DNA of 37,956 bases from a virus. The translations under genes were made by a program, and so were the position numbers. The stretch lies in the UHGV virus genome UHGV-0192057; one strand, 5' to 3'. The number at the start of each line of letters is the position of its first letter. Positions within the stretch are counted from its first letter, which is position 1. Below are positions 1-37,956 of this stretch, piece by piece. The notes under the pieces are model-generated. The model was given only the letters and a program-made list of their open reading frames with translations, ran no database searches and had not been told where the DNA came from.

Positions 1-182
1 CTGCACCTCCTTAAGTTATACAAAGTATAACTCACGGTGCTACAGGAAACGTTTTACCCCTGCGCATTTGTGAACGCCAGCAGAGTTTTTTATGCGTTAA
101 CAGATATGGAAAGCGGCTCGGAGAGAAAAGCAAAAGGTGAGGGAATTACAAAACAGAATGCGAGTCGTCTCGCATAAAACAA

Positions 183-199
183 CGCCACCCGAAGGTGGC
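183..199. repeat. attL core candidate (17-bp direct repeat, hairpin GCCACC-CGAA-GGTGGC)
   Basis: Exact copy of the 17-mer at 37143-37159; sits about 90 bp outside the int stop codon. Confidence 0.6.
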
Positions 200-36315: not shown

Positions 36316-36618
36316 ATGCATCCTTGCCCATACTGCGGAGCAAGTACCCGCACCAGAACAAGCCGCGACGCCAACGATACAGGAACAATCAGGGAGAAAT
36401 ATTACCAGTGCAACAACATTGAATGCAGCGCCACCTTTGTGACGCACGAGTTTGTCGTGAGAACCGTATGCCGTCCGCAACCCACCGAAGAACGGGGAGT
36501 CGTCCCCGCAGACGCTTTCAAATCATGCCACCGGGGAAGGGATCAACTCAGCCTCCCCCTGGGCGATTGCGCCTCCCAGTCAAAAACTGTACATTACGCG
36601 CGGGTGCCTTTCGGCTGA
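36316..36618 (+). CDS. ogr: Ogr/Delta-family zinc-finger late transcription activator (3' end uncertain)
   Basis: N-terminus MHPCPYCGASTRTRTSRDANDTGTIREKYYQCNNIECSATFVTHE carries the C-x2-C...C-x4-C Ogr zinc finger. The open frame runs to 100 aa versus about 72 in P2. Confidence 0.8.
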   Translation: MHPCPYCGASTRTRTSRDANDTGTIREKYYQCNNIECSATFVTHEFVVRTVCRPQPTEERGVVPADAFKSCHRGRDQLSLPLGDCASQSKTVHYARVPFG

Positions 36619-36749
36619 CGGCTGGAAGGATTACCTGAAGGCCGGATGTGGAAAGGCCCCGAGTCAAACATATTGTTTAACCCGAGGCCCTGACCATCTA
36701 ACCGTGACAAGTGGAAGGTTAGCGCCTCTTTGAAAAAGGAGCAAGCGCT

Positions 36750-36890
36750 ATGCCGCAAAAAACGATCATCGTGAGCATTTTATGCTTAACCATGTTGTTG
36801 ACCGTCTGGATGATACACCGTTCACCGTGTGAGTTCAGACTTAACATCATGTGGTCAGAATTTGCGGCGTTCTTGCAGTGTAAACAGTAA
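36750..36890 (+). CDS. Hok/Gef-family type I toxin (HokA-like, 46 aa)
   Basis: Hand-translated MPQKTIIVSILCLTMLLTVWMIHRSPCEFRLNIMWSEFAAFLQCKQ; AGGAG 9 nt upstream; resembles E. coli HokA from memory (MPQK..., TWMIRDSLCE..., AAFLACK); single TM then conserved Cys. Confidence 0.6.
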   Translation: MPQKTIIVSILCLTMLLTVWMIHRSPCEFRLNIMWSEFAAFLQCKQ

Positions 36891-36983
36891 GAAACCGCAG
36901 CGGGGGTGAAAGCCCCCGCTATCCGGTTGCCGAAGGTTCGGTCGAAAGTCGCACCATCACACGCAAGTCACAAAGAAAAACAA

Positions 36984-37015
36984 AGCCCGCAGCGTAAAAA
37001 CTGTGGGCTTTTTTT
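36984..37015 (+). terminator. Rho-independent terminator downstream of the hok-like gene
   Basis: agcccgcag-cgtaaaaa-ctgtgggct stem-loop followed by TTTTTT. Confidence 0.6.
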
Positions 37016-37142
37016 GTTTAACAACCTGGCGGTGAAAACAACAAGCAGAGATAGTCTCACCAAAAAAATTTAGAACGCCATGGCAATATGTGGACAACTC
37101 GAAAAATAATCCTTTATTTTTCATTGCATTACATCAGTTTTC

Positions 37143-37159
37143 GCGCCACCCGAAGGTGG
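37143..37159. repeat. attR core candidate (17-bp direct repeat / terminator hairpin)
   Basis: Identical to 183-199; followed by gtgcttttattatt, so the right copy retains a U-tract. Confidence 0.6.
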
Positions 37160-37172
37160 CGTGCTTTTATTA

Positions 37173-37514
37173 TTACTTATCCCTGTCTAACCAGTCGCCG
37201 CTTTCAATTAGCTTTAATCCATCGACGGGTCGTTGATAAACGTACATCCATGCACTCCCGTACGGCGTCTGAATCAACTGGCGCGCGTATTCACCGCCCC
37301 TGGTGCGCAAGGCATCAAGTTCGGCCAGCGTGGCGTTGTCAATACGATAAACTTCACCGTGTACTGTTCCGTTCCCCGGAACTGCGCCTGGATAGTGGCC
37401 CAGGCTATACAACTGGTAGTTATCGATACTGAAATCGCCCAGTAACTGGGCATTGGTCATCCAGTGACTGTTGCCTTGTTTGTGGCGTAAACTGCCGTAG
37501 ACAAATATTCGCAT
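37173..37514 (-). CDS. ytfP: Gamma-glutamylcyclotransferase-family protein YtfP (host)
   Basis: 113 aa MRIFVYGSLRHKQGNSHWM... (GGCT-like YGSL motif); directly downstream of the tamB 3' end as in E. coli. Confidence 0.85.
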   Translation of the reverse strand: MRIFVYGSLRHKQGNSHWMTNAQLLGDFSIDNYQLYSLGHYPGAVPGNGTVHGEVYRIDNATLAELDALRTRGGEYARQLIQTPYGSAWMYVYQRPVDGLKLIESGDWLDRDK

Positions 37515-37516
37515 TG

Positions 37517-37956
<440 letters not shown>

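Follow-up and report, generated by a model that had tools for sequence, protein, structure and literature searches.

A predicted hok/sok-type cassette without a mok frame, carried next to ogr by a P2-like prophage

The analysis of virus genome UHGV-0192057, a stretch of 37,956 nucleotides that we call the window, indicates that a P2-like prophage very probably carries as cargo a type I toxin–antitoxin cassette of the hok/sok type, lodged between the late-gene activator gene ogr and a terminator/attachment arm. As delimited from the sequence, the cassette spans about 36566–37018 (∼450 bp). A preliminary description had located a toxin module at 36620–37020; the module is indeed found there, but this interval starts too late: its left border cuts off the promoter together with the initial 18 nt of the mRNA (36566–36619). 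The anatomy proposed below is read from the sequence and from comparisons, and the dynamics would follow those of R1, as summarised in PMC8621323, and those of hokW-sokW of phage Sp5.

The toxin gene is a plus-strand coding sequence of 46 codons plus stop (36750–36890; peptide MPQKTIIVSILCLTMLLTVWMIHRSPCEFRLNIMWSEFAAFLQCKQ). Seven nucleotides before its ATG, the Shine-Dalgarno (SD) sequence AAGGAG can be read at 36737–36742, in agreement with the good ribosome-binding site noted earlier; in the minimum free energy (MFE) structure of the full-length mRNA, this SD is engaged in a local hairpin with CCUCUU. The Hok/Gef architecture first attributed to the open reading frame is supported by the Pfam profile HOK_GEF (PF01848), which matches residues 9–44 on profile positions 7–42 of 42 with 27.8 bits (E 1.9e-6) for a gathering score of 22, so the objection that no Hok-family match exists falls away. 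Similarly, the PHROG 251 family (‘MokW-like host killing’) matches residues 1–46, the full length of the peptide, with an E value of 4.7e-19. The hydrophobic stretch is N-terminal (residues 5–23), and residues C12, T14, E28 and A39 are invariant in an alignment of the peptide with HokA, HokB, HokC and phage homologues. In the genome NZ_CP116067, which is 99.8% identical over this region, PGAP names the product ‘Hok/Gef family protein’ (WP_016237651.1).

The preliminary description had also likened the peptide to HokA of Escherichia coli, and this resemblance holds while orthology does not. The K-12 HokA protein is found by BLASTP at 45% identity (E 6e-12), and it is the closest of the only three K-12 Hok proteins that were aligned (46% for HokA, 26% for HokB and 24% for HokC), with the segments MPQK, WMI, CE and AAFL.CK in common. 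The best NCBIfam models for the open reading frame are the HokA equivalog (NF007290) and the Hok subfamily, which reach 37.4 bits for a cut-off of 89 and 27.3 bits for a cut-off of 73, respectively. Because the equivalog score is so far under its cut-off, the peptide is, by its sequence relationships, a member of the Hok family resembling HokA and not a HokA orthologue. Unlike the present module, K-12 hokA sits by cspA and is interrupted by IS150.

Upstream of the toxin gene, a putative hok promoter is placed on the plus strand at 36566–36595, with TTGCGC (36566–36571), an 18-nt spacer and TACATT (36590–36595), the transcription start being expected near G36602. The blocks ATTGC and TA(C/A/G)ATT-ACGCGC-GGGTGCC are kept across modules whose upstream DNA is unrelated, and at the −10 region they are in register with K-12 hokB and hokC. 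Besides, an alignment of upstream DNA revealed that the homology between modules in unrelated contexts starts at the ATTGC block, that is at the −35 element, and we therefore take a mobile unit to extend over about 36566–37018. Neither this promoter nor the Sok promoter described below was called by a promoter scanner, each matching the consensus at 8 of 12 positions; both assignments rest on conserved blocks and on homology with K-12. The hok promoter would thus be a weak and conserved one. The predicted full-length mRNA runs over about 417 nt (36602–37018, plus strand), in line with BLAST homology to other modules over 36600–37014, and it would end at a Rho-independent terminator (36982–37018) made of a hairpin at 36982–37011 and a T run to about 37018, which agrees with the canonical terminator reported before.

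The predicted transcript appears to be intensively folded, with an MFE of −171.1 kcal/mol (z = −8.0 compared with shuffled sequences). Its 5′ end is a tac-like element (GGGUGCCUUUCGGCUGA, 36602–36618) for which two alternative partners are predicted. In the unconstrained MFE structure of the full-length mRNA, the first 17 nt pair with 36937–36955, an fbi-like box (GUUCGGUCGAAAGUCGCACC) complementary to the 5′ end. After deletion of 86 nt from the 3′ end, the MFE structure pairs the 5′ end with 36648–36660, a ucb-like box (GUGGAAAGGCCCC) that acts as a local partner, and the RNAalifold consensus does likewise (helix 1, 99.4% paired in 43 homologues). The energies of the two duplexes hardly differ (−23.8 kcal/mol for tac-fbi and −23.6 kcal/mol for tac-ucb). 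For the window, the tac-fbi duplex compares with −17.5 kcal/mol for shuffled sequences, and over 71 unique relatives its mean is −27.0 kcal/mol versus −16.9 kcal/mol for shuffles (median z −3.8), the real duplex being stronger in all 71. The 5′ element is fixed by the search pattern used to gather the relatives, and the tac/ucb helix is invariant among them; its support is therefore one of conservation, an invariant helix offering no covariation.

Further elements of the fold are predicted between these ends. A leader hairpin (36684–36728; GAGGCC...CUAACC / GGUUAG...GCCUC), which would present the Sok target, forms in the MFE structure of the truncated RNA; its helix 5 shows 100% pairing across 43 homologues, and the changes it contains are all one-sided. 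Inside the coding sequence, a box at 36862–36870 (UUGCGGCGU) is predicted to pair with the start-codon region at 36750–36758 (AUGCCGCAA), forming helix 7, with 9 pairs and 99.2% pairing in the 43 homologues. Downstream of the stop codon, the consensus places a hairpin at 36893–36928 (helices 12 and 13). A scanner also finds it, at 36898–36921 with 9 pairs (7 of them G-C), where a GC-rich hairpin had been pointed out previously. Four of its pairs are changed on both sides, each in 9 to 15 of the 43 sequences, and by analogy with R1 it is likely to mark the 3′ end of the processed, active mRNA. As a whole, the consensus structure of the 43 relatives is 99.1% paired, compared with 40–47% when the partners are slid, and it contains 13 pairs changed on both sides versus 0–4 in the slid controls, mostly in the post-stop hairpin and the helices of the coding sequence.

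The window MFE structures also suggested a Mok-independent switch, in which Sok binding would free GCCUCUU to close the SD and 3′ truncation would open it. This candidate was dropped: over 71 homologues, the ensemble probability that the SD is unpaired is 0.30 for the full-length RNA, 0.28 after truncation and 0.30 when the Sok target is masked, and only 21 of the 71 shift in the predicted direction.

The second component of the cassette would be a Sok-like antisense RNA of about 64 nt, transcribed from the minus strand from 36709 to 36646. It is predicted by positional homology, since the whole module can be aligned with K-12 hokB and hokC and the annotated sokB and sokC both project to 36708..36646 on the minus strand. 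Such an RNA had been expected in the leader from the start, along with an antisense promoter somewhere in 36650–36760, and homology provides a candidate for each. The putative Sok promoter (36717–36745, minus strand) combines TTGCTC (36745–36740), a 17-nt spacer and TAACCT (36722–36717), with a start near G36709. The complement of its −10 element (AGGTTAGCGCCTC) is invariant in 43 homologues, the −35 element is either TTGCTC or TTGACT, and the layout is the same as that of K-12 sokB (TTGCCG-17-TAAGAT, then 7 nt to the annotated start). Judged by these alignments, the hok leader contains a predicted antisense Sok gene with a putative promoter of its own.

In the fold of the predicted Sok RNA (−35.6 kcal/mol, z = −6.5), a 5′ tail of ∼13 unpaired nt precedes an 18-bp hairpin, a form that is kept in all 47 Sok variants found among the relatives. 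This support comes from folding each variant on its own. In the RNAalifold analysis, no pair of the Sok hairpin is changed on both sides; the lower 10 pairs are invariant, so this lower stem brings no evidence of covariation, and the upper stem differs by indels. Across 71 relatives, the leader is conserved apart from the 5′ tail of the predicted Sok and the matching loop of the target, where variation is greatest. Twenty-nine distinct 17-nt tails were counted among the relatives, and single genomes contain up to 6 hok/sok copies; this diversity of tails would fit an avoidance of cross-talk between co-resident copies.

The Rfam sok family (RF01794) matches 36602–36760 over its full model length with an E value of 2.2e-9, but the score of 47.9 bits is under the gathering score of 59. 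For comparison, K-12 hokC and hokB obtain 118 and 110 bits, while P88 and TL-2011c obtain 48 and 36. The phage-type leaders inspected (36602–36760 of the window, L004 2503–2660 and L006 2001–2161) all score between 36 and 48 bits, below 59, and the subfamily is therefore missed by annotation at this threshold.

Compared with R1 hok/mok/sok (parB) and with K-12 hokB/sokB and hokC/sokC, the module has the same overall plan: a Hok-family peptide, an mRNA starting with 5′ GGGUGC, a predicted tac-fbi end pairing with an alternative ucb partner, a post-stop hairpin, a Sok unit at the homologous position of the leader with a similar promoter layout, and a terminator 3′ of fbi. It differs from these loci by the lack of mok, either overlapping as mokB or in frame as mokC, by a leader with 8 fewer nucleotides separating the target hairpin from the SD, and by a peptide of 46 aa versus 49–52; its Rfam sok score of 47.9 bits also contrasts with the 110–118 bits of hokB and hokC. 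A further likeness is to the phage-borne 46-aa Hok proteins (PHROG 251) of P88, Chuche and Shiga toxin (Stx) phages such as TL-2011c, which are of the same peptide type (50–85% identity). Matches to the module extend over ∼415 nt in P88 and Chuche and ∼356 nt in Stx phages; the nucleotide identity of these relatives is 75–85%, and their Sok 5′ tails and hairpin loops differ in sequence from those of the window. By its published description, hokW-sokW of Sakai prophage 5 (Sp5) is likewise a prophage-encoded hok/sok locus, though HokW has 51 aa and resides in a lambdoid Stx2 phage. That locus is a working type I toxin–antitoxin system whose toxin is directed to the inner membrane and becomes active on induction (PMC8621323).

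On this basis, the cassette may operate as follows. From its weak promoter, a stable and folded hok mRNA would be made, and the pairing between its 5′ and 3′ ends would keep the full-length form inert. Slow trimming of the 3′ end up to the post-stop hairpin would remove fbi, after which the 5′ end would pair with ucb. This tac-ucb form would be translatable and open to Sok, and the short-lived Sok RNA would pair with 36646–36709 and block or destroy the mRNA. Once Sok synthesis stops, Hok would be made and the inner membrane depolarised. Such a shut-off could result from the loss of the prophage, from a transcription stop imposed by an invading lytic phage or from prophage induction. As for the payoff to the phage, we infer that exclusion of competing phages ranks about level with prophage retention, followed by a help in lysis. 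With respect to exclusion, R1 hok/sok lowers the plating of T4, as cited in PMC8621323.

The junction between ogr and hok makes the contribution to lysis worth weighing more closely. The ogr gene (36316–36618, plus strand) is predicted to encode the late-gene activator and is named ogr/Delta-like in NZ_CP116067; its product matches Pfam Ogr_Delta with 57.8 bits. This open reading frame has 100 aa versus 72 in P2, and only residues 4–51 match Ogr_Delta. Its last codons and TGA stop (36616–36618) coincide with the putative hok promoter and with nucleotides 1–17 of the predicted hok mRNA. The two genes are not separated by a terminator, so that ogr and late transcripts are likely to continue into hok. 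In P2, the terminator of the ogr and F-operon transcripts comes directly after ogr; here the hok terminator occupies that position. Among 129 instances of the module, obtained from a pattern scan of IMG/VR and from copies in the annotated genome and phage records that were retrieved, an ogr homologue is directly upstream in 95, nearly always at the same distance (in about 90 instances).

One could thus propose that help with lysis or its timing, and not addiction, is the main role of the cassette: ogr and late transcripts would carry hok and outnumber Sok, and Hok would depolarise the membrane late in infection. A lysis role is plausible because these transcripts should read through hok, and it is favoured by the position of the ogr stop codon inside the 5′ end of the hok mRNA, by the location of the hok terminator, by the fixed junction and by the observation that phage release from Sp5 falls by half when hokW-sokW is missing (PMC8621323). 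However, the 5′-extended mRNA arising from the predicted read-through may fold otherwise and stay untranslatable, and the module is independent of ogr, since it is also present in non-phage islands and elsewhere in Stx phages. As the main role, lysis is in our opinion possible and rather unlikely. A broader proposal is that the phage-borne 46-aa Hok works without a Mok leader and, in P2-like phages, is additionally wired into lytic transcription, acting as an effector of lysis or of exclusion coupled to Ogr expression instead of a plain addiction module. Hok would then be released on Sok decay and also when late read-through transcripts outnumber Sok; we consider this combination doubtful. The hok/sok-type toxin–antitoxin cassette with the payoffs ranked above remains the reading that we favour.

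A distinctive feature of this cassette is the absence of a mok frame. In R1, mok is essential for regulation, and a mok-like frame had been anticipated in the leader of the present module. Our search covered ATG, GTG and TTG starts in the other frames as well as a mokC-like in-frame extension, and the same script recovered mokB as a positive control. In the window, no mok was found: the upstream open reading frames that reach toward hok have only 9 codons (GTG 36704) and 14 codons (TTG 36730), and, over the length of hok, stops interrupt each of the two alternative frames several times. No candidate was seen either in 50 of the 71 unique relatives, and a mokC-type in-frame extension is present in none of the 71, because an in-frame stop lies 18 or 30 nt upstream of the ATG. 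The lack of mok thus appears, from these comparisons, as a shared trait of a large and widespread subfamily and not as a private lesion. As this phage-borne subfamily is devoid of mok, the textbook coupling of Sok, mok and hok cannot be its control. A recent survey left Mok out as hard to predict (bioRxiv 10.1101/2025.08.07.668861), and since Mok was not analysed there, the mok-less state of the phage-borne subfamily may be unreported so far.

The same absence invites a more pessimistic interpretation, in which the module would be a decayed and silent relic that lost mok, carries an untranslatable hok and rides along without effect. The mok-less leaders are consistent with it, as are the low predicted unpaired probability of the SD (0.17–0.25 in every modelled state) and the reported inactivity of the K-12 chromosomal hok loci (Pedersen and Gerdes, 1999, as cited in bioRxiv 10.1101/2025.08.07.668861). 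Against this view, exactly 46 codons are retained in 67 of the 71 unique relatives, despite a nucleotide divergence of up to roughly 30%; two relatives have an altered 44-aa C-terminus. The dN/dS ratio of hok has a median of 0.25 and is below 1 in all 523 homologue pairs, so that the Hok peptide is, to judge from its codons, under purifying selection. Promoter blocks, fbi box, post-stop hairpin and Sok unit are also conserved, some of them with compensatory changes, and the absence of mok is common to a widespread subfamily. Purifying selection together with intact reading frames therefore disfavours the relic, which we hold to be improbable. As a precedent for the favoured hok/sok-type reading, 42 of 45 diverse Hok homologues were toxic when tested (bioRxiv 10.1101/2025.08.07.668861).

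The assignment of the favoured cassette to the prophage itself relies on the attachment region. A 17-bp direct repeat (CGCCACCCGAAGGTGGC) is found at 183–199 and at 37144–37160, the latter being the attR core and the former the identical attL copy, with an integrase-sized open reading frame just inside the left copy. The suggestion that these repeats are the att cores, and that the module lies inside the prophage at its end, is well supported. Indeed, a simulated empty site (window 1–199 joined to 37161–37560) gives one contiguous match in 5200 of 5426 complete E. coli genomes, with 100% identity in NZ_CM128590, and an unoccupied attB therefore exists without hok. The segment from the hok terminator to the att core (37015–37143) is found by BLAST in only 3 of the 5426 genomes, and it includes a predicted phage attachment arm (37090–37135, plus strand) that combines an Int arm-type site (TGTGGAC) with an IHF-like site rich in A/T; this DNA (ATGTGGAC...AAAATAATCCTTTATTTTTCATTG) is similar to the Int P-arm and IHF sites annotated ahead of the P2 attP core. 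The att core coincides with the stem-loop of the ytfP terminator (183–199; 37142–37163). Upon integration, a ytfP terminator is rebuilt at attR, and a half-phage copy remains at attL.

The phage genes flanking the module are D, ogr and the integrase gene, and its neighbours in NZ_CP116067 are D, ogr, ytfP and tamB. These comparisons identify the hok/sok module as cargo of a P2-like (Peduoviridae) prophage inserted in the ytfP terminator, between ogr and the attachment arm. The notion that hok belongs to the host chromosome by ytfP and that the prophage merely integrated alongside, which could draw on this proximity and on hok modules outside prophages such as that of the RM9131 urease island, is refuted with near certainty by the contiguous prophage-free junction without hok in 5200 of 5426 genomes, by the rarity of 37015–37143 and its P2-type Int and IHF arm sites, and by the homologous module that follows ogr in isolated virions of P88 and Chuche. 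Concerning the phage itself, no close relative was found among deposited phage genomes; the matches to the prophage region 13000–36600 are limited to terminase and portal at ∼72%, and they come from P88-like (Xuanwuvirus) and other Peduoviridae phages.

The module is much more widespread than this prophage. As a discrete unit (36600–37014), it is detected by BLAST in 674 of the 5426 E. coli genomes. A copy with 94% identity is located at the end of another prophage adjoining ihfB, where two modules stand in tandem, and copies with ∼88% identity occur in the RM9131 urease island and in many O157:H7 and other Shiga-toxin-producing strains. Many Stx phages have a module that is 78–85% identical, and the P2-like phages P88 and Chuche have one that is ∼75% identical with the same D-ogr-hok order. 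The RM9131 copy (L002 3421–5290; 88%) is not part of a phage; it shares its island with urease genes, IS66 elements, a traT fragment and a type B L31 gene. It follows that phage and non-phage settings exchange the module. Other prophages contain tandem hok modules of different subtypes, 455–720 bp apart (L003 4283–4700 and 5003–5431; L023; L089). In Chuche, a Com-like gene and a gene for a DNA methyltransferase lie between hok and the integrase gene as well (L005 3516–4458), so the ogr-to-att interval can accommodate further cargo.

The novelty of the cassette is low. Modules of this type are annotated in RefSeq and in phages (P88, Chuche), the subfamily is present in PHROGs, and the enrichment of Hok in prophages has already been published: a survey reported 6290 Hok homologues in IMG/VR phages and prophages, noted Hok for 9.3% of the Escherichia phages and described prophages as four-fold enriched in it (bioRxiv 10.1101/2025.08.07.668861). 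Two papers on P2 defence hotspots (PMC9122126 and PMC13586616) make no mention of hok.

To conclude, the hok/sok cassette as found here matters little by itself, being an ordinary and already annotated kind of element. It should be of interest to specialists of type I toxin–antitoxin systems on two accounts: the phage-borne subfamily appears to keep the RNA folding apparatus of hok without mok, and it is missed by the Rfam sok family at the gathering score. For the biology of P2, the fixed ogr–hok junction adds a small site for accessory genes by the attachment site.
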